This document shows, piece after piece, positions 7,848 through 39,556 of a stretch of 62,024 nucleotides of DNA. Source of the DNA: a virus. Its lineage: Duplodnaviria > Caudoviricetes. The stretch is taken from positions 1 through 62,024 of IMG/VR virus record IMGVR_UViG_3300031753_000006; one strand, written 5' to 3'. Made by a program: the position numbers and the translations under genes. A model generated the notes under the pieces. That model was given only the letters and a program-made list of their open reading frames with translations. It was not told the origin of the DNA and did no database searches. Position 1 is the first letter of the stretch. Each line of letters begins with the position of its first letter.

Positions 7848-8752
7848 TGGCGCTGGCTCCCGATGCCCTGCATGTCGGCGGTAGCAGCATTCATCGTTGC
7901 AACGAATCGTGGGAATCAATCCAAGCCGATCCTCGCGGCCTTCTCTTGATGTGGCACGAACCGCGCCCAGACGCGCATTACGTCATCTCGTGCGATCCAA
8001 CGATGGGCATCACCGGCTGGACAAGATCCGCGCGCCGAGACGGCGACGAAAAGGTGGATAATTGTGCAATCGAAATCTTTCAGTCCGAGGCCATCAAGCT
8101 CCCTCTTTTTAACGAGGACGGAATTCAGAAGATTGATCCGGCGACGAAGCAACCGGCTTTTGTTAGACGAGATATGCAAGTCGCAGAGTATGCCGGACCA
8201 GTGGACGCTGTTGAAGCAGCCAGGATCTGCAAACTCCTTGGACGGATATATCAGGGTGCCGATGAAGAATACGCCCGCCTCATATACGAAGCATGGCCTG
8301 GGCCAGGGGTACTTACTACTCAGGAGCTATTACGGCTTAATTACTCCAATATCTGGATGTGGGAATACATAACCGGCGAGGCTGAAGAAACCAACCGGAT
8401 GGGTTGGCAGTCGTCCTTCCAATCCCAGAAGATCCTGTGGTTTCGTTCGCGCCGACATTTGATGGAACGAAAGGCCAAGATCTATTCGCAGTGGCTGGTC
8501 GAAGAGTACGCGAACTCGGTCATCGATATGGACAAGATGCGTGCTAAGGCCGCATACGGATACCATGACGATCGAATGCAGGCTGCTAACATGGCTTTCT
8601 GGGCGGCCCACAGGTGGTCGTACGATGAATCCCCGCCAGAGCCGGTGACCGCGAACGCCGAGATGGACTTCCAGAAGTTCGCTCCGACATTAGGTGAATC
8701 AGGCGACTTCCGCGCGGCGTGGGAAGTGAGCGTCGATAACTGGGACGTTTGA
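7847..8752 (+). CDS. terL: Terminase large subunit, C-terminal nuclease part
   Basis: YVISCDPTMG, QVAEY, GYHDDRMQA RNase H-fold acidic motifs; TGATG overlap with the ATPase ORF. Confidence 0.8.
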   Translation: MALAPDALHVGGSSIHRCNESWESIQADPRGLLLMWHEPRPDAHYVISCDPTMGITGWTRSARRDGDEKVDNCAIEIFQSEAIKLPLFNEDGIQKIDPATKQPAFVRRDMQVAEYAGPVDAVEAARICKLLGRIYQGADEEYARLIYEAWPGPGVLTTQELLRLNYSNIWMWEYITGEAEETNRMGWQSSFQSQKILWFRSRRHLMERKAKIYSQWLVEEYANSVIDMDKMRAKAAYGYHDDRMQAANMAFWAAHRWSYDESPPEPVTANAEMDFQKFAPTLGESGDFRAAWEVSVDNWDV

Positions 8753-9589: not shown

Positions 9590-11569
9590 ATGCCTGAAGA
9601 CATTGCGGCTCTAGCCGGGGAATCCTTCGATCTACCGCCTATCAAAGAACTCGCGGCTGATGCTGCCAAACCTGGGACTGTGGAGTACGCCACAATCCAG
9701 TGGGCCAACGCCAAGCTCAAGCAGGGTCAGCAGTTTGTCGAAGCCAGCATCGGGTACTCCAACGCGACTTCTGCTATCGACGCTATCTTCTCGAACGAAC
9801 GGACGTCCGGTTCATCGTACGTGCCTACTCCTAAGCCGATGTCCCGCACCCGCGCGAATTTCGTGGGTAAAGTCGCCGAGGATCTGACTGCCCAGCTCAC
9901 CGACACCCGCATCTTCTGGAAGTACTCGACTCGCAACCCCGCGTACGAGAAACACGCCACGATTGCGAACGACAACGCGAAAGATTGGTACGTCAACCGA
10001 CTGATCGACCTCCGTCTCGGTGACGTAGTCCGCTACTACACTGTCGCCGGCACTGGTATTGCCCATCTCTACTATTCTCGGCGGCTCAACGACATGATGC
10101 TCGACGCGAAGGATCCTCGCTCCGTCTTCCCGGTCGACCCAGTGTCCTATCACACGTTCCAAGACGCGCTGGGCGTGATCATCCGTGATGCGCGCACACC
10201 TCGGTGGGTCAAATCCGAGTATGGTAAGACTGTCGTGGCTGACGCAGGCGGCGTTGGCATCTTCGGGTGGATGACCCAAGCGATCAAGGGTGGATCTACC
10301 CAGAAGCATTCCGGCCCACTGTCCAAACGTTCGGGCGACGACAAGCCCATCCCCGCGGTACCCACAGTATGGGTCAACACGATGTACTTGGCCGACCCGC
10401 GAGTAAATAAGAAAGAGAACGACGTTTACATGGGGCCTTGGAAGAACGGCAAGCCCCAATCGCCCTGGTCTTATCGCGTTAAGCCTGGGGCGCCGCTCTA
10501 CCCGTTCAAACGAATGATCGTATGGACAACGGAATGCCTGCTGTATGATGGCCCGTCTCCGTACTGGCACGGCAAATTCCCGGTCATCAAGCTCACTCTC
10601 AACCCATGGCCGAATTCTTGGCTGGGCAAAGCGCCACTTTGGGACTTACTCCCGCTTCAAGAATCCATGAATGCCCTGTTACGAGTCATCGACGATCACG
10701 CGGCGCAGTTGGCTCAACCGGGTGTGGTGGCCGACCGAAACGTGTCCGGCGCGGAACTGAAGAAGTTTAACAGCCGGGCCGCCGGTTGGAACATCCGAAC
10801 GAACACTGCGTCGGGCAAGGGGATCACCGTGGTCCCACCGCCGCCGCTCGATCAATCGCTCTGGGAACATGTCAACTGGATCAAAGAAGTGATGCAGATG
10901 CTGTCGGGCACGCTGGACGCCTCACAGTTGGCTGGCCTAGCACAAGTTCCATCGGACGACACGATCGACACTCTCATGAAAGCCATGACGCCAGGTAATC
11001 GTTCGCGATCTCGGATCATGGAAGGATTCATGAAGGAATTGGCCGAGATGTATCTCTACAACATGGCCGAGTTCGATACGATCAGCAAGCGAGTCGCGAA
11101 GTTCGGTCCCACGGCCGTCACGAATGAGGATTTTGATTTCGCCGCTGGCAACTTTATACCGGACGATGTACCGGGATCCGAGCCGGGAGATATCGCGTCC
11201 ACCTATGATGCCTTAGCTGCGGACGAGCCGCGGCCGGAATTCGAGCGTGCCAAGCAGTTGTTCCAGTCATTCACGTACGAGTACACGCCGAACACCCTCC
11301 TGAACTCGGCCGCGATGCAGGACCGGATGGAAGACTTTATGCTGGCCAAGATGGGCTATCTGGATTACTTCACATTCATGCAGAACTTAGGAAAGACGCA
11401 GATTGTGCCGCCGAGCATGAAGATTCCCGATTCGATTACTGAGCGGCTAGTGTTACAGCAGCAGATGGGGATCGGGATGATTGCCAACGCGCAAGGTCGG
11501 AAGGCCACTAACCAGTCAGCGCCATCGCAAGGGCAGAATGCTGCCGGCCCAACGATCCAGACATCGTGA
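9590..11569 (+). CDS. Portal protein
   Basis: 659 aa between TerL and scaffold/capsid; PYWHGKFP...WLGK...LLPLQESMN portal-like segment; Gln-rich tail. Confidence 0.8.
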   Translation: MPEDIAALAGESFDLPPIKELAADAAKPGTVEYATIQWANAKLKQGQQFVEASIGYSNATSAIDAIFSNERTSGSSYVPTPKPMSRTRANFVGKVAEDLTAQLTDTRIFWKYSTRNPAYEKHATIANDNAKDWYVNRLIDLRLGDVVRYYTVAGTGIAHLYYSRRLNDMMLDAKDPRSVFPVDPVSYHTFQDALGVIIRDARTPRWVKSEYGKTVVADAGGVGIFGWMTQAIKGGSTQKHSGPLSKRSGDDKPIPAVPTVWVNTMYLADPRVNKKENDVYMGPWKNGKPQSPWSYRVKPGAPLYPFKRMIVWTTECLLYDGPSPYWHGKFPVIKLTLNPWPNSWLGKAPLWDLLPLQESMNALLRVIDDHAAQLAQPGVVADRNVSGAELKKFNSRAAGWNIRTNTASGKGITVVPPPPLDQSLWEHVNWIKEVMQMLSGTLDASQLAGLAQVPSDDTIDTLMKAMTPGNRSRSRIMEGFMKELAEMYLYNMAEFDTISKRVAKFGPTAVTNEDFDFAAGNFIPDDVPGSEPGDIASTYDALAADEPRPEFERAKQLFQSFTYEYTPNTLLNSAAMQDRMEDFMLAKMGYLDYFTFMQNLGKTQIVPPSMKIPDSITERLVLQQQMGIGMIANAQGRKATNQSAPSQGQNAAGPTIQTS

Positions 11570-11641: not shown

Positions 11642-11896
11642 ATGGCACTCTCAGTTGTCACTGGCGGTCACGGAAGCGGCGGAACTGGTGGCGCAGAACC
11701 CACTAGCGGTAGCCCCAACCCCAACCCCAACGGCTTTTTGGCTAAGTCAACTATGATCAATCACTCGGCGCCCTCGTTCGGCAAACAATCGTTCAGTCGT
11801 GCGTCGAAGGTCAGCACGACCCCCGGCAAACTCGGTCAGTCGTCTCGTCTGGCCCAGTCCGTCTCGTCTCTTCGCCGGAAAGGAGCATTGGCGTGA
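11642..11896 (+). CDS. Small Gly/Ser-rich basic protein
   Basis: Extended -10 TGGTATTCT-N7-ATG; low-complexity sequence. Confidence 0.6.
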   Translation: MALSVVTGGHGSGGTGGAEPTSGSPNPNPNGFLAKSTMINHSAPSFGKQSFSRASKVSTTPGKLGQSSRLAQSVSSLRRKGALA

Positions 11897-12042
11897 TCAC
11901 GTTCACTTTGAGAAATGCCAATGGCAATGTCAAGCCGAACTTTATCGAATTGAAGCAGAATGCGGACCAGCAGCACCGAGACGCTTTAGAGCAGTTACAT
12001 CTCAAGAACTTGGGTGCAGCAAAGGGGGAGAAAAATGGGTAG
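11893..12042 (+). CDS. Hypothetical protein (49 aa, not in ORF track)
   Basis: GTGA overlap, AGGAG RBS; fills the gap between two genes. Confidence 0.5.
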   Translation: MITFTLRNANGNVKPNFIELKQNADQQHRDALEQLHLKNLGAAKGEKNG

Positions 12043-12232
12043 CACAGCGGGTCAAATGGGCAGTGGTAAAGGCGGCTTCTTCCCCAAGAAGTCCGGCTTC
12101 TCGTCCGGTTTCGCGAAGAAAAAGACGGGCATTCTGTCCAAAGGCTTCTCGGGCAAGACTTCGAGCGACATGATCAAAGGGCCGCGAGACGCCAAAGGCA
12201 CTCGTGAGTCCGGCATGAACGGAGGGTACTAA
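12035..12232 (+). CDS. Small Gly/Lys-rich basic protein
   Basis: GGGGAG RBS; MGSTAGQMGSGKGGFFPKKSG. Confidence 0.65.
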   Translation: MGSTAGQMGSGKGGFFPKKSGFSSGFAKKKTGILSKGFSGKTSSDMIKGPRDAKGTRESGMNGGY

Positions 12233-12649: not shown

Positions 12650-12930
12650 AAGGAAAGGACGAAATGCCGCACGACGTAAAGGGTAATTTGTTAAAAGTTG
12701 GCGACGAAGTGCTTCTTCGTGCAGTAGTTGAGGAAATTAGCACTGGTATAGAATTTTGTAATTGTAAGATCAAAACATTCTATCCGATGTATCCCAGTGA
12801 CAAGCACGATTCGTTTTCAGCGATTAACACCCGTCAGTTGGAAAAAGTGGAGTGTATTCCAAGTGAGGAAAATAAACCACTTGGTTGGGTTGATACTAAA
12901 AACCCTCAGTTTGTGTAAGGAAAGGACGAA
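12650..12930. repeat. 14-bp direct repeat AAGGAAAGGACGAA
   Basis: Copies at 12650-12663 and 12917-12930. Confidence 0.85.
12664..12918 (+). CDS. Hypothetical protein, probable inserted gene
   Basis: A/T-rich; flanked by a 14-bp direct repeat. Confidence 0.65.
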   Translation: MPHDVKGNLLKVGDEVLLRAVVEEISTGIEFCNCKIKTFYPMYPSDKHDSFSAINTRQLEKVECIPSEENKPLGWVDTKNPQFV

Positions 12931-12938
12931 GGTAATTT

Positions 12939-13688
12939 GTGACGATCGACGAAGTGATCTCGACTCTGGAACTTGACACGGAAACCGCGGCAATTCTGCG
13001 ATCCAAGGCGAAGGCCGAGAAGGCTGCCGCCCTCAAACAACAGAAGGATCTGGACACCATTGAAGCCCAGCGCGCGGCTCTTGAAGCTGAGCTGGTGGCT
13101 GACGGCAAAAAGGGTGCTCGCAACTACAAACAGTGGTACGAGGAGAATTTCCCAAAGATTCAGAAGTTGCAGGGTGATTACGCGAAGTATGTCGAGCGGT
13201 ATGGATCGATCGATACCACCACGACTACCACGACCACGACCCCCACGACCGTCCCTGCTGGCATGACGCCCGAACAAGTGTCCAAGATGATCCAGGATAC
13301 CTACACGCCGCAGTGGTCGACCCTCCTCAAGGGCAGTGGCAAAATCCTCGAGAAGCACATTCGCGCCGGCCGTAAGAACGAACTTGACTGGGACAAATTG
13401 TCCGAATTGGCTGCCACTCACAATGGCGATCTCGTGGCCGCGTACAACGAATGGGACGCGCCCGAAGCCGACAAGGCTCGTAAGGCTGACGAGGAAAAGC
13501 GCATTAACGAGGAAGTTGAGAAGCGTGTGAAAAAGCAGCAGACCAACAGTTTCTTCCCGACGACCGAACAGGCTCCGACGGGAGTGTCGCCGCTGTCGAA
13601 AGACCGCGGTGGCGAGCCGAAGTACGACCGTAATAAGGTCATCGAGTCCGCGATTTCGGGCTTGTATGAACCGAGCACAGTTCACTAG
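12939..13688 (+). CDS. Capsid scaffolding protein candidate
   Basis: Charged coiled-coil protein with a poly-Thr linker, directly upstream of the capsid gene. Confidence 0.65.
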   Translation: MTIDEVISTLELDTETAAILRSKAKAEKAAALKQQKDLDTIEAQRAALEAELVADGKKGARNYKQWYEENFPKIQKLQGDYAKYVERYGSIDTTTTTTTTTPTTVPAGMTPEQVSKMIQDTYTPQWSTLLKGSGKILEKHIRAGRKNELDWDKLSELAATHNGDLVAAYNEWDAPEADKARKADEEKRINEEVEKRVKKQQTNSFFPTTEQAPTGVSPLSKDRGGEPKYDRNKVIESAISGLYEPSTVH

Positions 13689-13697
13689 GAGGATTCG

Positions 13698-14804
13698 ATG
13701 CCTGATACCTTAACGCAAATCGAGGTAACGACCCGCCGTTACATTGACGAACAGCCCAAGTTGCGGGACTTGGTGTTCAACAAGGACCCCTTCATGTCCT
13801 TCTTGGACGAGAACTGCCTCGATGAAGTGGAGGGCGGCTCGACCTGGAATGACAATATCGAGTATGACGTGCAGGATGGCGGATCCTACAGCAAGGGACA
13901 GGACCTGCCTGCTGACCAACGTCAGATCGAGCAGCAACTCCGCTTCGATCCCAAGTACCAAACCGTGATGATCCCCTTTTATAAGGAAGACATCAAGGTT
14001 CTGAATAACGGACCGTTGGCGGTTGTGAAGCTGGTCGAGGAGCGTGTCGACAGCGCGTATATGCAACTCGGCGCGCAGACAGCACTGCAACTGTACTTCC
14101 AGGGCCAGTCCGGCAACTACATCAAGTTGATCAACGGATTGCTCGAGGCACTGAGCGATGGCACCACGAACGGCTGGGATGGTAATACCTACGCTGTCTA
14201 CGGCACCCTCACCCGCTCGTTGTACGGCGGCCGTATGCTCGCACCCGCGCCGACCACGTTCACCAATTCCACGTTCTCCCTGCCCCAGCTTGAAACGATG
14301 TATCAGTCGGTCAACTTTGGCAGCGGCGAGTATGAGCCGAACATCATCCTGACCACGGCGGTCGGGTACGGCATCATCCGCAACAACTTTCAGACCCAGC
14401 AACGGTTCCAGAATGTGACCGTGGCAAAGGGTGGATTCCGCGGCCTCGAGTACAACGGTGCCGTCGTGTTGGCTTCCCGCTATGCCCCCGGCTCCTACCT
14501 GACCAAGTCGAACGGCACGAACGATCGTGTGGCCGTTCGGTACCTGACCTACACCACGAACGGTGCGGTCACGGCCTACCCCACCGGCTCTCTCGGAACT
14601 GGCGAGTCGATCTGGCTCATCAATGCGCGCAAGCCGATGATCAAGTACCGCATCAGCAAGCAGGCACCGTTCAATGGTTCGCTCGACGACGATGGATTCA
14701 TCCCGTCGGCCGGTAACACCAAGATCGTGGGCAAGGTCCTGCTCGCCCACAACATGACCGTACTTCCCGGCTACCACTGCTACGGGTTCGGGTTCACGCA
14801 GTAA
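13698..14804 (+). CDS. Major capsid protein
   Basis: 368 aa, AGGAGG RBS, strong codon bias; INGL and PNIILTT...QQRF...GGFRGLEYNG coat-like segments. Confidence 0.85.
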   Translation: MPDTLTQIEVTTRRYIDEQPKLRDLVFNKDPFMSFLDENCLDEVEGGSTWNDNIEYDVQDGGSYSKGQDLPADQRQIEQQLRFDPKYQTVMIPFYKEDIKVLNNGPLAVVKLVEERVDSAYMQLGAQTALQLYFQGQSGNYIKLINGLLEALSDGTTNGWDGNTYAVYGTLTRSLYGGRMLAPAPTTFTNSTFSLPQLETMYQSVNFGSGEYEPNIILTTAVGYGIIRNNFQTQQRFQNVTVAKGGFRGLEYNGAVVLASRYAPGSYLTKSNGTNDRVAVRYLTYTTNGAVTAYPTGSLGTGESIWLINARKPMIKYRISKQAPFNGSLDDDGFIPSAGNTKIVGKVLLAHNMTVLPGYHCYGFGFTQ

Positions 14805-14832: not shown

Positions 14833-15456
14833 ATGTCTGCAATCCAAGTCTACAAGCGAATCGCGAATCCCTTCATGCCGCAAGGCACGAGCGCGAAAAC
14901 AAACTCCGCTACTCCTTTCTATGCTCCTGGCGAGATCGGCTGTGGCTTTTTCGATCCGATGACCGGTTTCTCGTGCGCTCGAGTCCGACTGGATTCCGGT
15001 GCTACATCGGCCACCGCGGTCGGCGCGGTGAAGGCTGGGCAACTAGCTTTCTGGAAAGACCGCTCGAACAATCTCGTCACAAACGATCAGGCGCAGACTG
15101 ACATCGCCATCGCTCTTGGGGCCGCTGCCCCAGCCAACGCTTGGCTGAACCGTGTAGCCGGTGTATTCCAGTTGGCCGTTTCCACGGCTGCTGGTACCAA
15201 CGACTCAACCGGTAACCCGGTCACGTATGTCTGCGATATCGTGATCGAAGGTCCGAACGTCAACGTCTTCACTAAGGCGAGTGGCGCGACGGCCGGTTGC
15301 CAAGCGGTTTGCGATACTACGGCCAGCACGGCTCAGGCTATCGCGCTGACCAACACTAACACGGCTCCGACGTCCCAAGTTCTCGGTGTGTTCCGGTCGT
15401 CCACGATCACGAACAACTTGGCTCCTATGGACGTACAGATCGGATTCTTGGTGTAA
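14833..15456 (+). CDS. Capsid decoration/cement protein candidate
   Basis: Ala/Thr-rich, GAGGAGG RBS, directly after the capsid gene. Confidence 0.55.
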   Translation: MSAIQVYKRIANPFMPQGTSAKTNSATPFYAPGEIGCGFFDPMTGFSCARVRLDSGATSATAVGAVKAGQLAFWKDRSNNLVTNDQAQTDIAIALGAAAPANAWLNRVAGVFQLAVSTAAGTNDSTGNPVTYVCDIVIEGPNVNVFTKASGATAGCQAVCDTTASTAQAIALTNTNTAPTSQVLGVFRSSTITNNLAPMDVQIGFLV

Positions 15457-15465
15457 GGAGGAAAC

Positions 15466-15723
15466 ATGGCAGTTAACACCACAGCACCACAAGAACGATT
15501 TGTCTTCGGCCAGTTGGTCGGGCGTTTTTACCCCAGCCTGACTGTTGCAAATGGCGACACTCTGGCTGTACCGCTGATCCGGATTGTGGATATCTCCGCT
15601 CAACCAACAACGGCTGTTTCTGTTGGCACGACCATCGTGCAGAGCGCAACCGGCGCCACGATCACATTTGTTACTGGCGGCTCAGTGACTTTGAACCTCT
15701 GGGTGGTTGGCCGCGAGGGCTAA
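15466..15723 (+). CDS. Small virion structural protein candidate
   Basis: AAGGAGG RBS; beta-rich; last gene before a terminator. Confidence 0.6.
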   Translation: MAVNTTAPQERFVFGQLVGRFYPSLTVANGDTLAVPLIRIVDISAQPTTAVSVGTTIVQSATGATITFVTGGSVTLNLWVVGREG

Positions 15724-15753
15724 ACACGGATATTGTCCAATTGTCGCACTCCC

Positions 15754-15791
15754 AACCGGCCCCAAGGATTACCGTCCGAGGGGCCGTTTTA
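15754..15791 (+). terminator. Intrinsic terminator after the capsid operon
   Basis: CGGCCCC...GGGGCCG stem followed by TTTT. Confidence 0.6.
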
Positions 15792-15811
15792 CTAGGTAAA
15801 CTGGTGGCTGT

Positions 15812-16573
15812 ATGGCGAAATCGTCCGCATCGAGGATCCACGAGGTGAAAGTAAGCAGTTCCGGCACAGGTGAACGGTTCCGCGGATCGAGCGATATCCC
15901 ATTGGCGCCGGAAGGAGTCGCCAAGGCCCGCGCGCTCGCTAAGGAGATCGCCAAAAAGGGTGGGTTGGATTACATCTACGCCTCCAAAATGAAGCGAACC
16001 GCGCGCACGGCTGAGATTCTATCCAATGCAACCGGTGCGAAGATCGTCTGGACCGAGGAGTTCGTGGATTGGGCGCTGGGCGGCCTCGAGGGGAAGCCTG
16101 TAAACGACGAAACGATCGCTATTCAGAACGAATTTCTGCTCGATAAGCCTGACACGAAGGTCCTTGGCCGCGGCCCACTGAGTACACGAGACGGCGAGAG
16201 CTTCAATGCCTTCCGAAAGCGCGGTACCAAGTACACTATGGACGACGTCATACCCCGCGCAGAGAAGGAACCAGACGTTCGGCGTGCTTATATCGTGAAT
16301 TTCCGATTTATCAAGCTCGTGAAGGCTTGGATCAAGGCTGGCGCGGACAAAGATGGGTCGATCGACACGGACGAGATGGTGAAATACCTCAAAAACAACG
16401 ATTCGCCGCCTGGATCGATCGCAAAGTTGGTCGTGGGCGAGGGTGACAAGCCAAAACTGCAAGAAATCGACATTTTTGACGTTCCAAAGCTCGATGGCAA
16501 CGTCTTTTTGATCCGGCACTCGACAACGGCGTGGAATAAGCCTGAGAACGACACAAAGGACGACGATGAGTAA
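15812..16573 (+). CDS. Histidine phosphatase (phosphoglycerate mutase-like), circularly permuted
   Basis: RFRGSSDIPL, YIYAS.MKRTARTA and GESF motifs; the catalytic FLIRHSTTAWN segment is at the C-terminus. Confidence 0.8.
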   Translation: MAKSSASRIHEVKVSSSGTGERFRGSSDIPLAPEGVAKARALAKEIAKKGGLDYIYASKMKRTARTAEILSNATGAKIVWTEEFVDWALGGLEGKPVNDETIAIQNEFLLDKPDTKVLGRGPLSTRDGESFNAFRKRGTKYTMDDVIPRAEKEPDVRRAYIVNFRFIKLVKAWIKAGADKDGSIDTDEMVKYLKNNDSPPGSIAKLVVGEGDKPKLQEIDIFDVPKLDGNVFLIRHSTTAWNKPENDTKDDDE

Positions 16574-17006
16574 GAGTTCGGCCAGTCGGCTCACGCAAAT
16601 ACGACCTTCGCGTGCTTCAGGTACGGGACAGGACCCTCGGAAACTGCCTAAAACGTCCGTGCTTTATGCCCACTACAGTGGAGAGGGGTATGATTGCGAC
16701 GATTGTGCGTTTTGGCTGACAGACAACCGATGTATCATCCACAGATCCGATTTAACGGTCAATGACGAGGACAAATGTGGCTTCATGATCCAGGGGAAGC
16801 CAGATACGTTCTGGGGCAAGCCGCACCTGAACCTAGATCCGAAACAGACGGGATTTGTGCGGAATTGGGGCGGTAAAGGGTGTCGCGTCTGCACCTACTA
16901 CAATGTAAGTAGAGACTGTGATAAAGTGGACAAAAACTCGGCTGGAGACGACCCCGGCGAGATCAATCCCGATGCTTGCTGTGCGTTGCAGAAGAAGGTG
17001 AAGTGA
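16566..17006 (+). CDS. Cys-rich protein with two HiPIP-like repeats
   Basis: CDDC-x8-C-x14-C and CRVC-x8-C...INPDACC. Confidence 0.55.
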   Translation: MSKSSASRLTQIRPSRASGTGQDPRKLPKTSVLYAHYSGEGYDCDDCAFWLTDNRCIIHRSDLTVNDEDKCGFMIQGKPDTFWGKPHLNLDPKQTGFVRNWGGKGCRVCTYYNVSRDCDKVDKNSAGDDPGEINPDACCALQKKVK

Positions 17007-17194
17007 TGCAAGAGAAGATCATAAAACGGTTCGGGCTTGATCCTAAAACACTGGATTACTCTCGTCCCGGCAGTACTGTGAAAACAGTCGGATACTCTCC
17101 CAGTAAACAGAAGTGGTATGGGTGGAGCCACCGTGCTATCTCTGGGTTTGGGTCTAAACAGAAGGCGCAGTCATTTGCACGATCGGTGTCATAA
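17006..17194 (+). CDS. Small hypothetical phage protein
   Basis: TGATG and TAATG couplings; GYSPSKQKWYGWSHRA. Confidence 0.65.
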   Translation: MQEKIIKRFGLDPKTLDYSRPGSTVKTVGYSPSKQKWYGWSHRAISGFGSKQKAQSFARSVS

Positions 17195-18483
17195 TGGATG
17201 ATTTCAACACACTCTCGCAACGCCTTCTGAGCCGCTGCCCCTCTGCTGGCAAGATTCTGTCCGAGCAGTTGATCAACGATGCGTGGAAGCAACTACAAGC
17301 TCGCCGTGAGTGGTCCTGGCGCCGCGGTCACAATATATTCCAGCCGCCGCCGCTGGTTACCGCTGGCACTGTCACAACGAACAAGGGTACCGGCAACCCA
17401 AACCTTATTACCGGCGTCGGCACCAACTTCACCCAATCGATGGTCGGTCAGCAGATCCGAATCAACGGTCTGAACTTCCCCTATTACGACATCACGGCCG
17501 TTTTGTCGACCACGTCCCTGCTCATCGGCTCGCCCGGTTGGACCGCGCCCGACCTCACAAACGCGGCGTATACGATCCTTCAGATCTACTACCCCGTCCC
17601 GGCCGACTTCGGCTACTTCTACACGATCATCTCAGTCAAGGATGCGTACCGGCTATGGGACACGGTGACCGAGTCCGACCTTATGCTGCTAGACCCGCAA
17701 CGCGCGCAGACCGGCCAAACGTACGGATGTGCCTTCTATGACTATCAACCGATATTTCAGGGAATCGTCAACCCGACAGTTCAGGTATCAGGAACTGGGG
17801 CCGTACCTGTGTCGGGGGCGGTTGCGGCCGGCTACTCGGGTCCGGTACCGTACACATACGTCATCACGATCTCAACCGGCGGTCTACCCGGCGGAGCGCT
17901 CCAATTTACGTGGATTCGATCAGGACAGTCAACGTCTACTGGGCCGATAGCCGTACCGGACAATAATCCGATCACTCTGGCGGACGGGTTGGGCGTTACC
18001 GTGTCCTTCCCGGTGGGCACGTACAACCTCAATGACACGTTCGTGATCAACGCCAACCCTGCGACGGCTGGCGGCAATAGCGGCCAGATGCGGTATGAGT
18101 TGTGGCCCTCTCCATCGCTGAACACACCGACCTCGCCGGTATACCAATATCCATTCATCTACATCAAGCGAGAGTACGATCTGACGATCTCGAATCCGAC
18201 ACTGCCGCCGCTGATGGCTAACCGCGGGGATCTGGTTCTTGAGATGGCACTTGCTCAGTGCGCACGGTTCCCGGGGCCAGACACAGATCACCCTAACCCC
18301 TATTTCAACCTTGCGCTGGCATTACAGCACGAGGCACGGGTGGATCGGATGATGATCGATGCCGAGAGGAATGATGAAGAAGTGGGAGTTAGCCTCGTGA
18401 CTTATAAGGAATATCCATTTTACCCTGCTCCATGGTTAGACGGCTCTTGGCAGCAATCGCACGCTCCGTTCATCAGAGGATAA
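17194..18483 (+). CDS. Head-tail adaptor-like virion protein with inserted beta domains
   Basis: Helical N-terminus (EQLINDAWKQLQARREWSW), YELWPSP, helical C-terminus. Confidence 0.55.
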   Translation: MDDFNTLSQRLLSRCPSAGKILSEQLINDAWKQLQARREWSWRRGHNIFQPPPLVTAGTVTTNKGTGNPNLITGVGTNFTQSMVGQQIRINGLNFPYYDITAVLSTTSLLIGSPGWTAPDLTNAAYTILQIYYPVPADFGYFYTIISVKDAYRLWDTVTESDLMLLDPQRAQTGQTYGCAFYDYQPIFQGIVNPTVQVSGTGAVPVSGAVAAGYSGPVPYTYVITISTGGLPGGALQFTWIRSGQSTSTGPIAVPDNNPITLADGLGVTVSFPVGTYNLNDTFVINANPATAGGNSGQMRYELWPSPSLNTPTSPVYQYPFIYIKREYDLTISNPTLPPLMANRGDLVLEMALAQCARFPGPDTDHPNPYFNLALALQHEARVDRMMIDAERNDEEVGVSLVTYKEYPFYPAPWLDGSWQQSHAPFIRG

Positions 18484-18486
18484 ACC

Positions 18487-18945
18487 ATGCGGCCATCACA
18501 AGCCTGCCTCGATCTTATCAAATCATTCGAGTCTTGCCGCCTCGTGGCGTACCTCGCGCCAGAAAGCAAACCTGGCCGCCCAGTTTGGGCCATTGGCTAC
18601 GGCCACACTTCACCGTCCGTTAAGGAGGGAGATACATGCACGCAAGCACAGGCCGATTCTTGGTTTATCGAAGATTTAAACTCTGCTGTCGATCGTATCG
18701 CCGCCCTGATCACCTACACGCCACTTACACAGGGGCAGTTCGACGCCCTCGTATCCTTCGCGTACAACACGAAATGGGAGGCGTTCAGGACCTCTACCTT
18801 GTTGAAAAAGGTGAATGCGGGCGATATGGCTGGCGCGGCCGAGGAGTTTCCCAAGTGGATCGACTCGGCCCACAAGGTAATGAAAGGACTGATCCGGCGC
18901 CGCAATGCTGAACGAGAGTTGTTCTTGTCCAAGGAGGTCGCGTGA
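18487..18945 (+). CDS. Endolysin, GH24 lysozyme
   Basis: IKSFESCRLVAY, WAIGYGHT, QFDALVSFAYN, GLIRRRNAERELF. Confidence 0.92.
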   Translation: MRPSQACLDLIKSFESCRLVAYLAPESKPGRPVWAIGYGHTSPSVKEGDTCTQAQADSWFIEDLNSAVDRIAALITYTPLTQGQFDALVSFAYNTKWEAFRTSTLLKKVNAGDMAGAAEEFPKWIDSAHKVMKGLIRRRNAERELFLSKEVA

Positions 18946-21787: not shown

Positions 21788-23143
21788 GTGCCCGGTCCTC
21801 CGCCCTACACTCAGTACACTCTCACAGCTCTGACCACAGAGATCAGCAACCTCCTTGCCGATCCGACGCAGAAGTACTGGACTGTACCGGAGATCCAGTA
21901 CGCCATCCAGGAGGGCATGTATGTCTGGGGTGCGTTGACATCGTACTGGCGTGACAGTTCCCCGTTCAATCTCACTCCGAACGAGGGGATCTACGACCTG
22001 TCAGTCAAACTACCGGCCTTGCGCACAAGATCTTGGACGCTGGGCCAGATGGTCGCCGACATCCAGTACTCTATCCTCGAGGCGCCAAACGGCATTTTGG
22101 GCACTGGGATGTCCGGACAAACGACCGTGACGGCGATCCTGAATGCGATCAATCGAGCGAGAAACCGGTTCATTCTCGACTCTGTGCTGCCGTTCACAGT
22201 TACTTCAATGCCGGTTCTTTTGCCGCCATCTACTGGCGTCGTAACTTTCGCAAACAACATAGGTTACCTGCATCGGGCGGCGTGGAAAGATGGGCCTAGC
22301 GGTACGTGGACAAACCTGTGGCGGCAAGACAATTATTCGGCCGACGCTGGCCTGTACCAATGGGGCACGACCACAGGCACGCCGCGGATCTTCAGTGAGT
22401 CCAATCTGACGCCGCTGGAGTTGCAGCTCATCCCACCGCCAGCCGCTGCTGGAATCCTGCAAACGATCAGCGTCATGTCCACGATGCTTGACCTCACAAA
22501 GTCCGGCACAACGTTCAACATACCGGACGAATGGATCCACGCGATCAAGTGGGGCGCGCTGTCGGAGTTGCTATCGGTCGACTCACTGATCGCCGATCCG
22601 GCTCGTGCTCAATACGCGAACACGAGATACCAGCAGGCCGTGGACTTCGCCAAGAACTCGAAGTCGATTATTCGATTACGGTTTGGCAACACCCCACTGA
22701 TGATCGATACGTTCCAGAGCATCGACGCTGGAGTACCGATGTGGCGCAACCAACAGGGAACTCCACAGATGGCGGGCATCATGTACGATCTAGTGGCCAT
22801 CGTGCCGGGATCGCCGCAGGTTGCGTATACCGTGACTGCCGACGTCGTCCAATCAGCCCCTATCCCGTTGATCGGCACGGACGACATAGATCTCGGCCCA
22901 GAGGACATCGGCCACCTGATTGATTACGTAGTCCACATCCTCACATTCAAGTGCGGCGGTAAAGAGTTCGCGTCCACGTATAGCCGTTACAACGATTTCA
23001 TGGACGCCGTCTCGTTCCGCGGCCAGATCAACAAAGCGCGGATTCAGTACCTCAAGCCGACGATGGAACAGCCGTCGATGGAAGAGGGAGAACGGCCAGA
23101 TGTCTATCAGTTGCAGTCAACTAAGAAGGGAGGCGGCAAATGA
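21788..23143 (+). CDS. Neck/adaptor-like virion protein
   Basis: LLADP...YWTVPEIQYAIQEG adaptor-like start; IPDEWIHAIKWGAL; TATAAT-N6-GTG. Confidence 0.6.
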   Translation: MPGPPPYTQYTLTALTTEISNLLADPTQKYWTVPEIQYAIQEGMYVWGALTSYWRDSSPFNLTPNEGIYDLSVKLPALRTRSWTLGQMVADIQYSILEAPNGILGTGMSGQTTVTAILNAINRARNRFILDSVLPFTVTSMPVLLPPSTGVVTFANNIGYLHRAAWKDGPSGTWTNLWRQDNYSADAGLYQWGTTTGTPRIFSESNLTPLELQLIPPPAAAGILQTISVMSTMLDLTKSGTTFNIPDEWIHAIKWGALSELLSVDSLIADPARAQYANTRYQQAVDFAKNSKSIIRLRFGNTPLMIDTFQSIDAGVPMWRNQQGTPQMAGIMYDLVAIVPGSPQVAYTVTADVVQSAPIPLIGTDDIDLGPEDIGHLIDYVVHILTFKCGGKEFASTYSRYNDFMDAVSFRGQINKARIQYLKPTMEQPSMEEGERPDVYQLQSTKKGGGK

Positions 23144-33474: not shown

Positions 33475-34056
33475 ATGCCCTTCAATCTCTTCGCACCGTC
33501 CACTTGGTTGAGCGGATTTGGCTCATCGCCACAACCCACAGGCCTGTTCCAAACTCGCGTGACCCGCACTCCTGGCGGCGTGGCGCCAATGGATCCAGAG
33601 AAACGCGCGGTATACAACGACCGGATCGACCCACTGCAAGTCGTCGCCCAATCCAATCTACCGCCCGAACAAAAGGCCGCTCTCATGTCTGCATGGAAGT
33701 CACAAGGACCCGGTTTCATTACCGCCCAGCCTGATCAAGTACAGAACTCGCCCGTGATGCGGCACGAACAGATCCACGCTCTACAGCAACAAGCTGGCCT
33801 GAACCCGTACGCAAACGAGATCGCCGGTCTAGTGAACCCAGGTCTGGTCGATCAGATCCGCAACACTCCGATCTATCAACAGGAGTTCAAGCAGTACGGC
33901 GAGGCGCCCACGATCGCGGACGAGGGGTCGGCGTTTCAGTTGACCATGATGCCGAACGACAGTTCGACGCCAAACTTACAGGACGCCATCATGCGCCACT
34001 TGAAGACACAAGTGCAGCAGAAGCAGCTCGCGCGGCTTACTTCACCCCGCGGTTAA
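33475..34056 (+). CDS. HExxH-motif protein (zincin-like)
   Basis: MRHEQIHALQ plus downstream DEGSAF. Confidence 0.5.
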   Translation: MPFNLFAPSTWLSGFGSSPQPTGLFQTRVTRTPGGVAPMDPEKRAVYNDRIDPLQVVAQSNLPPEQKAALMSAWKSQGPGFITAQPDQVQNSPVMRHEQIHALQQQAGLNPYANEIAGLVNPGLVDQIRNTPIYQQEFKQYGEAPTIADEGSAFQLTMMPNDSSTPNLQDAIMRHLKTQVQQKQLARLTSPRG

Positions 34057-34780
34057 TCCCAAAAGTAGCCTCGCTAAACAGTTCCTCGTACTCAGGTTCG
34101 CCCGGTCGGCATCCGTACGTCTCTAGGAATTGATCTCTATTCCGATCGGCTCCTCGCTTGATACAATTAGCGTCCGCTGGTTCGGCAAACCGCAAAGTGT
34201 TTGCACCGTTGCCAATGTGGAGCATCGGAAGATCGATACAGACAGCCCTGATTCCGGCCCAGTGCATTCGCACATGATATTCGGCGTCTTCACAATAAGC
34301 AGGGTAATATGATTCATTGAATGGACCTACCTTGTCGTAACAGGACTTGCGGATGAGAAAGCCAGAGAAGTTGGGGTGTGGCCGACCGCATGGTAAAATT
34401 TCTTCTGGGAAACCGAATTGCTCCTCGTTATCCACACTCACAGTAGTTACGAACTTATGACCAGTGAATTGAAGAATGCGGTATGTCGGCGGTGACACGA
34501 TCACGTCGTTGTTCAACACCAAAGCATGCTCACCACCACGCCGCCACACATCCCTCAGAGCGAGGTTCCAGCAGGCTGCAAGAGACTTCTGTTGAGCCAA
34601 CGCCGTGTAGACCACGTTCTCGAACTTTGCGGCGGTTGCCATACCCCACTGCTGAGTGCCATCTGTGGAGGCATTATCGACGATCGTGATCTCGACTGGG
34701 GTGTCTTGTGCGAGCGCGGCTTTGAGGGTTCGGCGGGTCAGGTGGAGGCCGTTGCGGGCGACTATGATGATAGAGTTCAT
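34037..34780 (-). CDS. Glycosyltransferase family 2
   Basis: IVDNASTDGT, LNNDV, VGPFNESYYPAYCEDAEY. Confidence 0.9.
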   Translation of the reverse strand: MNSIIIVARNGLHLTRRTLKAALAQDTPVEITIVDNASTDGTQQWGMATAAKFENVVYTALAQQKSLAACWNLALRDVWRRGGEHALVLNNDVIVSPPTYRILQFTGHKFVTTVSVDNEEQFGFPEEILPCGRPHPNFSGFLIRKSCYDKVGPFNESYYPAYCEDAEYHVRMHWAGIRAVCIDLPMLHIGNGANTLRFAEPADANCIKRGADRNRDQFLETYGCRPGEPEYEELFSEATFGINRGVK

Positions 34781-34896
34781 TTGTAGGAGATCCACAGTTG
34801 GTGGCTTACGACGAAAATAATTATACCGACGGATAGCCTAAAGTCGTTTATAACCGCCGCAGCAGACAAAGACAACATCAAAGAAAGGATCTTCAT
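34777..34896 (-). CDS. Small hydrophobic protein (39 aa, not in ORF track)
   Basis: ATGA overlaps at both ends; MKILSLMLSLSAAAV. Confidence 0.45.
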   Translation of the reverse strand: MKILSLMLSLSAAAVINDFRLSVGIIIFVVSHQLWISYK

Positions 34897-35243
34897 TGCC
34901 GACGCCCGTTAGAGATAGACGTGATATCACCGAGCGATGGTTGCATGATCGTGTGGCTCATGTCCACTTCTTCGATCAGTGCACCGGCCGAATTGTGGTT
35001 CGATTGCCGTTGATCATCATCGGCAAACTTACGTAAAGCGGCAGTGGCATACCTCTCGTCTCGGTAGGTACGGATGATCGCTTCGTTCTTGTCGGCGCCC
35101 AGGCTGACGACCGTGTGCTGGCGGGCTGCAATGGTCATGCCATCGGACGCACGATAGAGCATTGCTTGCGACGGACGTTTGTTCCCCTGCCGGTCGACCG
35201 ACTCTGGGTAGGTTTCGAGAATGTGGGTGTAGGGTTTGCTCAT
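34893..35243 (-). CDS. Hypothetical protein
   Basis: ATGA-coupled ORF. Confidence 0.6.
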   Translation of the reverse strand: MSKPYTHILETYPESVDRQGNKRPSQAMLYRASDGMTIAARQHTVVSLGADKNEAIIRTYRDERYATAALRKFADDDQRQSNHNSAGALIEEVDMSHTIMQPSLGDITSISNGRRQ

Positions 35244-35458
35244 TCTGCCTCAATTTCAAAACGGTCTTGGAATTCCGAGTAAAGTTTTTGTACAGCGGCC
35301 ATTGCCTGTTCCGCAGTTAGAAAACTTCCTCCGTAAGACCAACTAGCAATTCCGTCTTCTGGTCTTATATCGATACGGTCAATGATCTCTCCGGTTTCAG
35401 TTTCGTACAATACTCGACCGCAGTAAATCGTATACCATTTCAATTTGGTTTTTTTCAT
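35240..35458 (-). CDS. Hypothetical protein
   Basis: ATGA-coupled, A/T-rich ORF. Confidence 0.6.
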   Translation of the reverse strand: MKKTKLKWYTIYCGRVLYETETGEIIDRIDIRPEDGIASWSYGGSFLTAEQAMAAVQKLYSEFQDRFEIEAE

Positions 35459-35970
35459 TTAATCGCCTCGACCCCTAAGATCCAGCGGTCCCTCGCAATG
35501 TCTGCGCCTTCGATCATCCGCCAGTTAAATCGATAGTACGATGTCCAGTCGGCGCATGTCAAGAGGAATTGCTTCAGGCTTGCGGCATCGTATCCCCACT
35601 CATGCTGATCGTCTTTCGAGTCCATGTATGCTCCGTACACATTAGTCATGTATACCTGTGTGGAGATCCTTCCCTCTTGCCACATCTTAGCCAGTTCCCA
35701 CATATCAGGTACGCACACGATCAAAGATCCGTACGGCTTGAGAATGCGGTAGCACTCTTGAATCAACGACTTCGCTTCGCCGCAACGAAAATGCTCGCAG
35801 ATATGATGTAAGACAATGTAGTCAGCCTCATTATCGTGGAACATCGGCATCGAGTCACCACTGGCCACAACGTCGGGAGACCACTTCTCCTGACAGTCGA
35901 CGTTCAGCCAGACCGTGTTACCGGTCGATTGGAATTTCCTCTGGCCGCTACCTACGTTAATGCCGAGCAC
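35455..35970 (-). CDS. Class I SAM-dependent methyltransferase
   Basis: INVGSG, WLNVD, HICEH, ECYRILKPYGSLIVCVPD. Confidence 0.85.
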   Translation of the reverse strand: MLGINVGSGQRKFQSTGNTVWLNVDCQEKWSPDVVASGDSMPMFHDNEADYIVLHHICEHFRCGEAKSLIQECYRILKPYGSLIVCVPDMWELAKMWQEGRISTQVYMTNVYGAYMDSKDDQHEWGYDAASLKQFLLTCADWTSYYRFNWRMIEGADIARDRWILGVEAIK

Positions 35971-36130
35971 GGTTATAAACCTTTTCTAGTTCATCTTGGA
36001 TCTTGTTGTATTCATACACCACCCGTTTATACCGTTCCCACAGTTCTTCGCTGATCTCCGTTTTATAACCACACGACTCGTAAAAGCCGTAATCAGGCCA
36101 ACGTTCACAACGCTCAATTTTAATCTTCAC
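35957..36130 (-). CDS. Hypothetical protein
   Basis: GTG start overlapping the upstream stop. Confidence 0.5.
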   Translation of the reverse strand: MKIKIERCERWPDYGFYESCGYKTEISEELWERYKRVVYEYNKIQDELEKVYNRARH

Positions 36131-36819
36131 TATGCCCCCTTCCACCCCATATCCCCAGTCAACATCCGGTACCAGTTCCCAATCCCCGGTGACCGGCCGT
36201 TGAAGTGGTACACACTCGGCGTATTGTGCGTCACGGCGTTCGATCCATCGGGCGATAGTTCGTGTGACGCTGCCGACGCCATAGTCTGGAACACGTTGCA
36301 ACCCGAGTCGATCGTGGTGATCAGACGGCCCTTGCGGTAGAGATACCACTTCGTCCAACAGAGTTGGTCATCGTTGCCCCAATTGTCGATGTTGTCCGAC
36401 ATGGACAACAAGGCTTCAATCACCGCGCCTCGTTCGCCCATCCAACCGCCCGAGTTGATGTATCGCCATGGAGAGCGCCGATCCACAATAGGATAGTGGG
36501 TGGAGAGGTTGACGTCTGGCCAACAATTCTTCTCGGCCGACACGAGGATCAGTGAGCCGACCTGCTGGTATTTCTCGAGGATGGACTTTGATGTACCGTT
36601 GATGAACGTGTCCGCGCCATCGGTGAACAGGACGAACGGCTCCTCTCTCGTCTCAAGGAACTTGGCGGCGTCTCGGATCTTGGCGAGTGCGTGGCCGGGA
36701 TATATGCCGGTGCCGTAAGTGGCCAGCTCGATGTCGTACAGTTCGCACGATCGGCGCAACAAACTGAGGTCGATCCTCGGTGTATCATAATCGCAAGTGA
36801 AGATGAGGAGATCGCTCAC
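36130..36819 (-). CDS. PLOD/lysyl-hydroxylase-type glycosyltransferase domain protein
   Basis: LFTDGADT, VSAEKNCWPD, YINSGGWMG, DDQ, IDSGCNVFQT, HFNG. Confidence 0.8.
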   Translation of the reverse strand: MSDLLIFTCDYDTPRIDLSLLRRSCELYDIELATYGTGIYPGHALAKIRDAAKFLETREEPFVLFTDGADTFINGTSKSILEKYQQVGSLILVSAEKNCWPDVNLSTHYPIVDRRSPWRYINSGGWMGERGAVIEALLSMSDNIDNWGNDDQLCWTKWYLYRKGRLITTIDSGCNVFQTMASAASHELSPDGSNAVTHNTPSVYHFNGRSPGIGNWYRMLTGDMGWKGA

Positions 36820-37094
36820 TGCGGCCTCTCATCTTCCGGCGTGTTAGGCGTGCCGGTATAGCACTGATCCTTCTTACAAAAGCAACACCCCTTGGCCTTA
36901 CTGCAATAGTGCGAGCACTGCGCCTCACCATTCTGCCGCTTGCATGACCGCATGTTGCACGGCGGCTCGTTCGGATGTTCAGTGTCTTTGCAGGGGGTCG
37001 GCTGACCGGCCATGCAGGTCTGCGTAGTCAACCCGCCGATTACCACGCACGCGATCAACAAAAAGACAGATAGACAGATCAACTTAGCCACCAA
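36816..37094 (-). CDS. Small secreted or anchored Cys-rich protein
   Basis: Hydrophobic N-terminus then about 10 Cys; GGAGGT RBS. Confidence 0.65.
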   Translation of the reverse strand: MVAKLICLSVFLLIACVVIGGLTTQTCMAGQPTPCKDTEHPNEPPCNMRSCKRQNGEAQCSHYCSKAKGCCFCKKDQCYTGTPNTPEDERPQ

Positions 37095-37941
37095 TCACCT
37101 CCTTGTACACCCGTTCCAAGCACTCAGCGTGGTACTGCCAAGTCAACGTCCGCGCGAACTCATTAGGTCGCCAGTCCCACGACTGCGCCGTCAACGCCCA
37201 TCTGATCAACCGTTCGAGCAGCCCCTCGTCCGTTGGATCGAACCGGACTAGGCCGGGATAGTGCTCGCCGCCCCAGTTAGCCGAGGTATCGAGCACGCGA
37301 CAGCCAGCGCACAAGGCTTCTCCGGTCGTGAGGGACATGCGCTCAGACGTTGAGGCGTTGACGAACACCTTGTGGTCGAAGTATTTCTGGGCCAGTTGTT
37401 CGCGGGTTAGGCCAGTCGCTAGCTCGAATGGTACGCCGAGACGTTGGCAGATCGCACTGACCGTCGGCACACCTTTGTCTGTATCGCCGCGGGCAGAGAC
37501 GCACAGGACACCGTATACTGCGTTTCTGACATACGACAATGGCGCCGCATGAAACATTTCGTCAGTGCCATTAGGGATCACCCGAACGTTCCTACCATGA
37601 AGGATCGGCAACAATCCAGACTCTGTGTGGCTAAACGGTAGGATAAACCGCGCGTTCGATAACACGGCTCTAGCATACGACCCACTGAACCCATAGTAGA
37701 TCGGCGTCACCACGTACGGCAATCCGACTGCGAGCACGGCTTCGTAATTCCCGTTCGACCAATCGAAGTCACAGTGATAGATGTGGGCTAGATCGAAGTT
37801 GCCCGTCGCCATCGCCGTTCGATCCCAGCCCGTCTCGACGCACGTATGGCCGCGCTTACGAAGGGCTTCCATTGTGGCGTCGAGCGCGATCAGGTCGCCG
37901 CCTGGGTGGACTCGGCCGCGGTTAAGAAAGGCTATGCGCAC
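37084..37941 (-). CDS. GT-B fold glycosyltransferase (GT4-like)
   Basis: GGD...ALRKRGH, VIPNGTD, VFVNASTSE...EALCAGC; GTG start with GGAGG RBS. Confidence 0.8.
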   Translation of the reverse strand: MRIAFLNRGRVHPGGDLIALDATMEALRKRGHTCVETGWDRTAMATGNFDLAHIYHCDFDWSNGNYEAVLAVGLPYVVTPIYYGFSGSYARAVLSNARFILPFSHTESGLLPILHGRNVRVIPNGTDEMFHAAPLSYVRNAVYGVLCVSARGDTDKGVPTVSAICQRLGVPFELATGLTREQLAQKYFDHKVFVNASTSERMSLTTGEALCAGCRVLDTSANWGGEHYPGLVRFDPTDEGLLERLIRWALTAQSWDWRPNEFARTLTWQYHAECLERVYKEVIGG

Positions 37942-39005: not shown

Positions 39006-39556
39006 TCCCGGCGCTTACGGATGTACTGCAGCGTCTCTTCAGGCTGTGGGTATTCGACCACCGTGCCGTTCAGGATAGCAGGCAAGTGAGCGTGAACCAG
39101 ATCGACGTAGAGAGGGGTCAAGCGGTTCCACACGCTACGAACAGTCTCACCGGCATGGATAACTTCCCGTCTCTGCCCAATGATCGGGCCGGCGTCCACT
39201 GTCTTCTCCATTCGGAACATCGTTACACCAGTTTCTTTAGCGCCCTCTTCAACAGCCCAGACAACGGGTGAGCAGCCGCGGAACTTAGGCAGGAGGGAGT
39301 CGTGGAGGCAGTAAGCGCCTAACTTAGCTGCCGCGCAGAATTCCTCGGGGATCCACTGCCGCCAGTTCACAGCAAGCAGGACGTCACACTCAGGAGTGTA
39401 AGCAATCGAAGGGAATGTTCGCAAGTTTTTCACGTACGCTGGTTCCCCTTGTTGTTCCAAGGATGTGATAATCGATACATCGTCTCTTTGCTCGTACAGA
39501 TACTTCATGACCTCGACCGCCCGCTGCGTATTCCCGTACAGGTTAATCCTAGCCAT
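38993..39556 (-). CDS. Formyltransferase (Fmt/ArnA N-terminal domain), probable sugar N-formyltransferase
   Basis: HDSLLPKFRGCSP, ETGVTMF, VDAGPII. Confidence 0.85.
   Translation of the reverse strand: MARINLYGNTQRAVEVMKYLYEQRDDVSIITSLEQQGEPAYVKNLRTFPSIAYTPECDVLLAVNWRQWIPEEFCAAAKLGAYCLHDSLLPKFRGCSPVVWAVEEGAKETGVTMFRMEKTVDAGPIIGQRREVIHAGETVRSVWNRLTPLYVDLVHAHLPAILNGTVVEYPQPEETLQYIRKRREWPK

Follow-up and report, generated by a model that had tools for sequence, protein, structure and literature searches.

The 62,024-bp stretch of DNA analysed here (the window) is a complete viral genome with direct terminal repeats and 55% G+C (IMG/VR record IMGVR_UViG_3300031753_000006), and it is podophage-like, with an SU10-like portal and adaptor. 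Two adjacent plus-strand genes within it encode a histidine phosphatase of 253 amino acids (aa; 15812–16573) and a Cys-rich protein of 146 aa (16566–17006), both taken from the list of open reading frames (ORFs), and the two proteins share an N-terminal peptide of nine residues, which we refer to as the leader. The reading frames overlap by 8 nt (ATGAGTAA), and stop and start codons overlap at every junction from the phosphatase through the gene of a conserved 429-aa protein (ATGAGTAA, TGATG and TAATG). The pair lies within the structural module, which extends along the plus strand from ~9.1 to 34 kb, and its position and translational coupling in this operon would fit late expression.

A leader shared by two neighbouring proteins

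The phosphatase ORF starts MAKSSASRIHEVKVSSSGTGERF and the Cys-rich ORF starts MSKSSASRLTQIRPSRASGTGQDP, with M-[A/S]-KSSASR-[I/L] in common, just as the first-pass annotation of the window had quoted them. The leader core of the phosphatase comprises M1–I9 (MAKSSASRI, 15812–15838; delimited by conservation and by a model confidence (pLDDT) below 50) and is followed by a hypervariable Ser/Gly/Thr-rich linker at residues 10–20 (15839–15871; column identity 0.15). In the Cys-rich protein, the core comprises M1–L9 (MSKSSASRL, 16566–16592; delimited by conservation in homologues) and overlaps the phosphatase stop codon, and a variable linker at residues 10–25 (16593–16640; delimited by conservation) leads to the start of the conserved domain at about residue 25. 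Both leaders fall in poorly ordered regions of the AF2 models: residues 1–18 of the phosphatase are predicted to be disordered (pLDDT <50), and residues 1–20 of the Cys-rich protein have pLDDT values of 58–63.

The codons for the shared peptide differ between the two genes (aaa tcg tcc gca tcg agg versus aag agt tcg gcc agt cgg), as had been pointed out before. By manual count, ~26 of 63 aligned nucleotides are identical (~41%), and three Ser codons belong to the TCN family in one gene and to the AGY family in the other. This divergence upholds the earlier proposal that the similarity reflects conservation at the protein level and not a recent duplication of DNA. Within the window the peptide is confined to these two genes: a six-frame scan found KSSASR at two sites, both of them the leaders, and a degenerate DNA pattern for the leader had two forward matches and no reverse match across the whole record. 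The local BLOSUM62 score between residues 2–25 of the two proteins was 49, the highest among 4095 pairs formed by 91 window ORFs (the next pair scored 36), and none of 20000 composition-preserving shuffles reached it (maximum 39).

Among proteins of similar length, a search at E ≤ 0.001 recovered 11 relatives of the phosphatase. In an alignment of 11 phosphatase sequences, six start with MAKSS[A/H][S/A]RI, two begin at (D)ERFRG and three carry unrelated extensions; with P0018–P0021 and a protein from the metagenome contig L034 (MAKSSATRI), the leader-bearing phosphatases number 11. Among Cys-rich proteins, all five close relatives of the window protein start with M[A/S]KSSA[S/T][R/H]L (6/6 in the alignment), and P0023 brings the total to seven. 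Mean pairwise column identity across 10 leader-bearing phosphatases is 0.87 at positions 1–9, 0.15 at positions 10–20 and 0.48 over the rest; the corresponding values for the seven Cys-rich proteins are 0.88, 0.42 (linker) and 0.66. Ranked by conservation, the leader is first of 245 9-mers in the phosphatases, which are otherwise ~40% identical, and third of 138 in the Cys-rich proteins. S4 and S5 are invariant in the leaders and R8 nearly so. Even between the leaders of the L034 and window phosphatases, codons differ synonymously (tcg/tct, tcc/tct, agg/cgt and atc/att). Since nucleotides and Ser codons have diverged while positions 1–9 remain the best conserved, the leader appears to be under purifying selection as a peptide.

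The leader is modular and dispensable for the fold, and its layout (extreme N-terminus, small residue at position 2, variable linker) is that of a tag. The expectation that homologues would keep the peptide holds for close homologues of both families and fails for distant ones, in which the peptide is lacking and the domain itself forms the N-terminus: M[AS]KSS opens none of the other 149 representatives listed for the Cys-rich family, many of which have the core from residue 2 onwards. A tree of 24 permuted phosphatases places the leader-bearing proteins in two well-separated clades; together with a third clade of 11 leaderless sequences, these form an unresolved trichotomy, for which a single gain or a single loss of the leader suffices. 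The tag proper ends at residue 9. The first-pass annotation had extended it to an SGTG motif further on, which is not conserved in homologues; when the phosphatase is aligned with P0058, a relative of canonical domain order, this SGTG falls on the NGTG loop just after the RHG strand.

The same annotation had asked whether the peptide is attached to varied cargo domains, and we found it on two partner families only. When a profile built from twelve N-termini of 40 residues was run against 5.8 billion proteins (71–2000 aa, E ≤ 10, only the 8000 candidates sharing the most words being scored), it returned 24 matches, of which 18 were phosphatases and six were Cys-rich proteins. A scan of IMG/VR for the TCN-TCN codon version of the leader, with AGY variants outside its reach, gave 107 stretches; among the 80 that were fetched, none was a credible gene start, 75 lying in frames of <60 codons and those in L117 and L105 being internal to longer frames. 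Small hotspot proteins of two relatives (MAKSGAIAV... in L010 and MAKTSAIAL... in L011) were considered as a third cargo and rejected, the likeness (5/9 positions) being judged too weak.

A permuted phosphatase and its HiPIP-like partner

Protein-family scans covered 58 window ORFs with Pfam, 22 of which were also compared with PHROGs. The phosphatase matches PF00300 (His_Phos_1) at residues 21–141 with 72.1 bits (cutoff 21.7), and its body runs from ERFRGSS... to the end of the protein (15872–16573; Pfam PF00300, AF2 and Foldseek). The catalytic strand and RH motif, placed by alignment (VFLIRHSTTAWN, residues 231–242, 16502–16537), lie close to the C-terminus. A HMMER comparison of the family profile with PDB entry 1ebb aligned query residues 231–245 (lyliRHeatawNkpe, 16502–16546) to chain residues 4–18 and query residues 20–175 to chain residues 17–162. 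Judged by this alignment, the phosphatase is circularly permuted, with the first strand and the RH nucleophile motif transferred to the C-terminus. The leader begins exactly at the permutation break, beside the catalytic RH loop and just after the WN of the catalytic strand.

Catalytic features of the superfamily are largely retained. R235, H236, T239 and N242 are invariant in 11/11 phosphatases, and the catalytic R-H, Arg62, Glu93 and the Asn of WN are invariant throughout the alignment. The AF2 model (pLDDT 83.7) gave 221 Foldseek matches to the PDB at E ≤ 0.001; at their head stand TIGAR, PGAM1 and a histidine family phosphatase of the riboflavin pathway (9mmh), with E ~1e-7 for TIGAR and PGAM. 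The protein therefore shares Pfam family, fold and catalytic residues with branch 1 of the histidine phosphatase superfamily (PhoE, dPGM, TIGAR, CobC), but differs from it in being permuted and, within its own clade, in the second catalytic His, which is Asn (N163, 16298–16300) in the window protein and P0002–4 (4/11) and His in the other 7/11. A literature search found no report of circular permutation in the histidine phosphatase superfamily, and none of a virion histidine phosphatase detected by bacteriophage mass spectrometry. A link to the aRES/ADPR-1''-phosphate phosphatase was considered and dropped, as that enzyme is described as a Macro-domain protein and not as a histidine phosphatase (10.64898/2026.01.28.702374).

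The Cys-rich protein consists of a double four-Cys domain (C44, C47, C56 and C71; C106, C109, C118 and C138/139; 16641–17006; family alignment and AF2). Its family has 259 representatives at E ≤ 1e-3, with a core spanning query residues ~25–143, and the nearest Atlas clusters are mostly viral. Across 80 sequences, which show two four-Cys sets, five Cys are invariant and a further four almost so, and in the AF2 model (pLDDT 88.6) the secondary-structure pattern is repeated twice. All 15 Foldseek rows were high-potential iron-sulfur proteins (HiPIP), but at E values of 1.2–9.2. A VIA structure comparison with 48161 chains gave nine at Z ≥ 2, all of HiPIP type, the best at Z 4.1 with an rmsd of 2.9 over 58 residues. 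The window protein did not match the HiPIP profile PF01355 at E ≤ 0.1, and relatives scored 15–17 bits, below the cutoff of 22.

The protein thus shares the CxxC...C...C arrangement with HiPIP, twice over, and its weak structural matches are to HiPIP or to the HiPIP-like small subunit of benzylsuccinate synthase. It differs in being viral, in carrying the unit twice in tandem and in having phosphoesterases as partners, and all scores lie below the usual thresholds. We therefore describe it as HiPIP-like and do not call it a HiPIP; it is possibly an iron-sulfur protein. In a literature search on HiPIP in bacteriophages or anti-defense, none of the papers listed mentions HiPIP.

The two proteins had been taken to be unrelated, a description that does not extend to their function. 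P0055 and P0058 are single polypeptides in which a canonical-order His_Phos_1 domain precedes the Cys-rich domain, and in L004, a phage of a different type, both genes occur ~1.5 kb apart and leaderless. Because the domains are fused in the former and neighbouring in the latter, we regard the phosphatase and the Cys-rich protein as functional partners. Co-folding of the two window proteins gave two ipSAE values of 0.00, where the mark is 0.32, a run without controls that speaks neither for nor against binding.

Both domains also recur in proteins of a kind associated with virions. The Cys-rich domain is fused to InPase (P0126) and SNF2 helicase (P0052), and in P0137 a 2H/Acb1-like phosphoesterase stands between its two halves. 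The permuted phosphatase lies within giant ORFs, alongside SNF2 in L002 (at least 3709 aa), ART-PolyVal in L003 (2887 aa; a weak match) and ADPrib_exo_Tox in L006 (at least 1256 aa); the permuted order is preserved where the domain is embedded in such proteins. In L008, a Cys-rich gene lies immediately upstream of a gene for a portal–InPase fusion, and in L005 a standalone, leaderless phosphatase homologue follows, at a distance of ~3 kb, a gene that PHROGs call as a major head protein, an order that L004 shares. In L001/L033 and L035–L037, leaderless standalone phosphatases start at or overlap the stop codon of ORFs of 500–811 aa that are Gly/Gln-rich by eye. These large ORFs matched no Pfam or PHROG family; they may encode internal virion proteins, or may formerly have been one ORF with the phosphatase.

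InPase and 2H are described as domains of phage-type polyvalent proteins, which are likely packaged and are fused to portal or MuF (Iyer 2017, PMC5512222); the same study argues for their injection. Like the domains of that catalogue, both window domains occur in giant proteins with SNF2, ADP-ribosyltransferase, InPase and 2H (compare PMC5512222), whereas the window proteins themselves are solo and carry a short tag instead of a covalent fusion. The main text of that study makes no mention of phosphatase, histidine phosphatase, cysteine, HIPIP or iron-sulfur, and as far as this main text goes neither domain appears to belong to its catalogue.

An accessory hotspot in the structural operon

Upstream of the pair, the plus strand encodes an SU10-type portal (9590–11569; Pfam and PHROGs), a scaffold-like coiled-coil protein with a Thr run (12939–13688; read from the translation), the major capsid protein (13698–14804; phrog_9953 major head protein, E = 1.9e-14) and, assigned by synteny in relatives, a 207-aa protein (14833–15456) and an 85-aa head-module protein (15466–15723). 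In the scaffold-like protein, the run comprises nine Thr followed by PTT (SIDTTTTTTTTTPTTV), possibly a linker or a glycosylation array. Downstream on the same strand lie a small leaderless ORF resembling Tad6 (17006–17194, with a probable ATG start at 17006), the conserved 429-aa structural-module protein (17194–18483; alignment and relatives), a lysozyme (18487–18945; Pfam and PHROGs) and an SU10-type adaptor (21788–23143; Pfam). The small ORF matches Pfam PF25188 (Tad6), an inhibitor of type I Thoeris, with E = 3.8e-13 and 50.1 bits (cutoff 27), but the match covers only profile positions 48–95 of 145, about a third. Tad6 is described as a ThsB-binding anti-Thoeris protein (PMC13728456).

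Comparison with relatives places the pair in a region of gene turnover. In ~20 related phages with capsid proteins 60–87% identical to that of the window, the order of capsid gene, ~200-aa gene, ~85-aa gene and ~416–431-aa gene is kept throughout, and between the last two the relatives carry nothing or assorted small genes (58–106 aa). Positions 15724–17193 of the window are thus a variable accessory hotspot (compared with L010–L026 and L044–L058), closed by the 429-aa gene, homologues of which are 45–57% identical in 11/11 relatives tabulated. The small hotspot genes of the relatives include a recurrent '...E(I/V)SF(E/K)PA.GG.IS' family. L034 carries its leader-bearing phosphatase at the equivalent site.

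The hotspot opens with an intergenic region (15724–15811, plus strand) in which a GC-rich stem-loop (GGCCCC...GGGGCC), GUUUU and a purine-rich stretch precede the ATG of the phosphatase. The stem-loop with its U-run occupies 15757–15789 and has a counterpart with U7 at 619–654 of L034. Its predicted fold has −30 kcal/mol and z −1.5 in the window and z −2.3 in L034, both weak statistics, and a simple terminator scan did not call it. It is possibly an attenuator that reduces expression of the accessory genes.

Relatives of the two proteins were recovered unevenly. Five proteins used as tblastn queries against cultured-phage records (both window proteins, P0045, P0098 and the Cys-rich protein of L008) gave no match, and neither did searches of IMG/VR with single proteins; IMG/VR homologues were found only with alignment queries. 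The phosphatase alignment found no relatives among genome contigs and 13 loci among metagenome contigs, with the leader in L034 only, and the Cys-rich alignment found none among metagenome contigs. Elsewhere in the genome, a family A DNA polymerase is split on the minus strand between two ORFs (46798–48234 and 44403–45923), one of which holds a UDG-superfamily domain fused to the 3'-5' exonuclease domain and the other the polymerase domain, with a nucleoside 2-deoxyribosyltransferase-like gene (45905–46312) between them.

Candidate roles of the leader

Given a modular tag, a pair of partners, a location in the structural operon, virion-type fusions of relatives and a Tad6-like neighbour, our favoured reading, to which we assign a probability of roughly 40%, is that the leader tags an enzyme pair for incorporation into the virion and later injection. 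The tag (A/S-KSSASR-I/L after removal of Met), displayed on a disordered linker, would act as an address label recognised by a component of the assembling procapsid, such as the scaffold, the inner surface of the capsid or the portal. Both proteins would enter the virion in the late phase and be delivered with the DNA into the next host, where their substrate would be a phosphorylated small molecule, probably one derived from a nucleotide. The fuller proposal, in which a portable nine-residue tag brings a counter-defence module of two proteins into the capsid of a podophage that lacks a protease, to be injected along with the DNA, is in our estimate somewhat doubtful.

Two systems offer precedents. 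In phage T4, the capsid targeting sequence (CTS) is removed by the prohead protease. This sequence is the only feature that T4 internal proteins share, and the cargo includes injected anti-defence proteins (PMC3012670); the sequence targets the scaffolding core (PMC3012670). As with the CTS of IPI–III and Alt, a short N-terminal peptide is here common to otherwise unrelated proteins that would be expressed late, two folds sharing M[AS]KSSASR[IL], but the window tag occurs on two partner families only, has no sequence similarity to the CTS and comes with no protease gene or consistent cleavage motif that we could find. In phage P1, a reporter is taken into capsids when it carries the first 30 residues of DarB, a protein of the Dar anti-restriction system, the signal being longer than 9 and at most 30 residues (PMC9024508). 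DarB is described as an enzyme of the SNF2/methylase polyvalent type that counters host defence, is delivered by the virion and depends on other Dar proteins for loading (PMC9024508). The P1 signal serves one large protein, whereas in the window a nine-residue core stands on two small proteins, and no Dar homologues were seen.

Several observations weigh against virion incorporation. The scans found no prohead protease family among the 58 window ORFs (22 of them also compared with PHROGs), and the leaders contain no T4-type cleavage site, with Glu at position 11 in only 3/11 phosphatase leaders and residues 10–12 unconserved; the idea of a cleavage tag, which had been raised alongside packaging, thus finds no support. 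The phosphatase, the Cys-rich gene and the tag are all absent from the ~20 relatives with 60–87% identical capsid proteins, so that no conserved receptor can be inferred. A head-module gene unique to the window was entertained as the receptor and set aside, the sole specific ORFs (11799–12173 and 12664–12918) having neither a family nor relatives. Enzymatic activity is uncertain in the N163 clade and, to judge from the substitution, may be altered or lost. Capsid binding and presence in the virion are themselves inferred from context and precedent. Moreover, the position of the leader at the active-site break, as placed by the comparison with 1ebb, would also suit a regulatory role, and with the tag on only two partner families a pair-specific role is equally natural.

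Such a pair-specific role, which we regard as unlikely, would be unconnected with the capsid. It could take the form of a docking or pseudosubstrate peptide, with the leader of the phosphatase occupying or gating its own pocket and that of the HiPIP-like partner docking there too, or of two leaders that bind a common third factor, and would mimic the fused forms of the proteins. The confinement of the tag to exactly two partner families suits it well, and the existence of the fused P0055 and P0058 implies that separate proteins need some means of association. The new N-terminus lies directly after the WN of the catalytic strand in the comparison with 1ebb, and the leader is basic and Ser-rich while the adjoining C-terminal tail of clade 1 is acidic. 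Against this reading, the leader is predicted to be disordered, and the monomer model shows it making no contact with confidence. A complementary interface would not usually consist of the same peptide on each partner, and leaderless phosphatases and Cys-rich proteins are common, the L004 pair among them.

Start-sharing may also have a mechanical origin. Among 12947 within-locus ORF pairs from 58 loci, three share at least five of residues 2–9: the two window genes, the Cys-rich gene of L008 and the portal–InPase gene beside it (MPKNSI), and a non-adjacent pair on opposite strands in L020. In L008, an exact 17-nt direct repeat (ATGCCCAAGAACAGCAT, the start and five codons; 7977–7993 and 8529–8545) opens both genes and looks like an insertion or recombination junction that reused the start of the neighbour. 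Because this repeat is exact at the DNA level, shared starts can arise mechanically through recombination, a further point against virion incorporation. It lends some weight to the suggestion that the leader is a relic of a 5'-end duplication at gene insertion, kept for expression or stability (for example through Met removal or an N-terminal stability rule), as does the finding that two of the three start-sharing pairs consist of a Cys-rich gene and its immediate neighbour. A or S at position 2 and K at position 3 are common in well-expressed bacterial genes. Yet neutral relics diverge as peptides, whereas residues 1–9 form the most conserved 9-mer even as nucleotides and Ser codon families have turned over, and selection for expression, which bears chiefly on the nucleotide sequence, would not preserve KSSASR as far as residue 9. 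In the window clade the peptide has since been maintained as its DNA changed, and we consider an origin and upkeep of this purely mechanical kind rather improbable.

We hold it to be more improbable still that the leader is a modification site (Ser phosphorylation, O-glycosylation or ADP-ribosylation) that marks or regulates both proteins. Invariant S4 and S5 and the nearly invariant R8 would suit such a site, and the phage encodes a block of transferases on the minus strand (34037–43712; protein-family scan) with six glycosyltransferase-type (three GT2, Glyco_tranf_2_5, a PLOD-type GT and one with conflicting GT1/GT4 assignments), two methyltransferase-type and one formyltransferase-type genes. 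We found no link between this block and the tagged proteins, however, and it may equally serve modification of DNA or of the surface. The scaffold-like protein with its nine-Thr run and the ADP-ribosyltransferase domains that adjoin phosphatase-domain relatives also speak for modification; against it, the linker is richer in Ser and Thr than the leader and yet unconstrained. Chance similarity between low-complexity N-termini, for which both are sufficiently Ser-rich to raise the background, is refuted by the shuffles, by the top rank among window pairs and by the recurrence of the 9-mer in 11 phosphatases and seven Cys-rich homologues.

Experimental evidence for short, transferable peptides that target proteins to capsids comes from very few phages (T4 and P1), and such peptides are useful for the loading of foreign proteins. 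If the leader is a virion-incorporation tag, it would add a third type of capsid-targeting signal, independent of those of T4 and P1, and would be the equivalent in trans of the covalent fusion seen in polyvalent proteins. It would provide a compact new example in a simple podophage, in which solo effector domains take the place of covalent virion fusion, and two previously uncatalogued domains would join the injected effectors of phages. Regardless of the role of the tag, the analysis describes a permuted family of phage histidine phosphatases, a viral tandem HiPIP-like family with 259 representatives, and recurrent fusions with phosphoesterases and SNF2, none of which we found reported in a literature search. 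Together, the permuted phosphatase, the HiPIP-like family and these fusions point to an unexplored theme in phage counter-defence that combines an enzyme with a cofactor domain.

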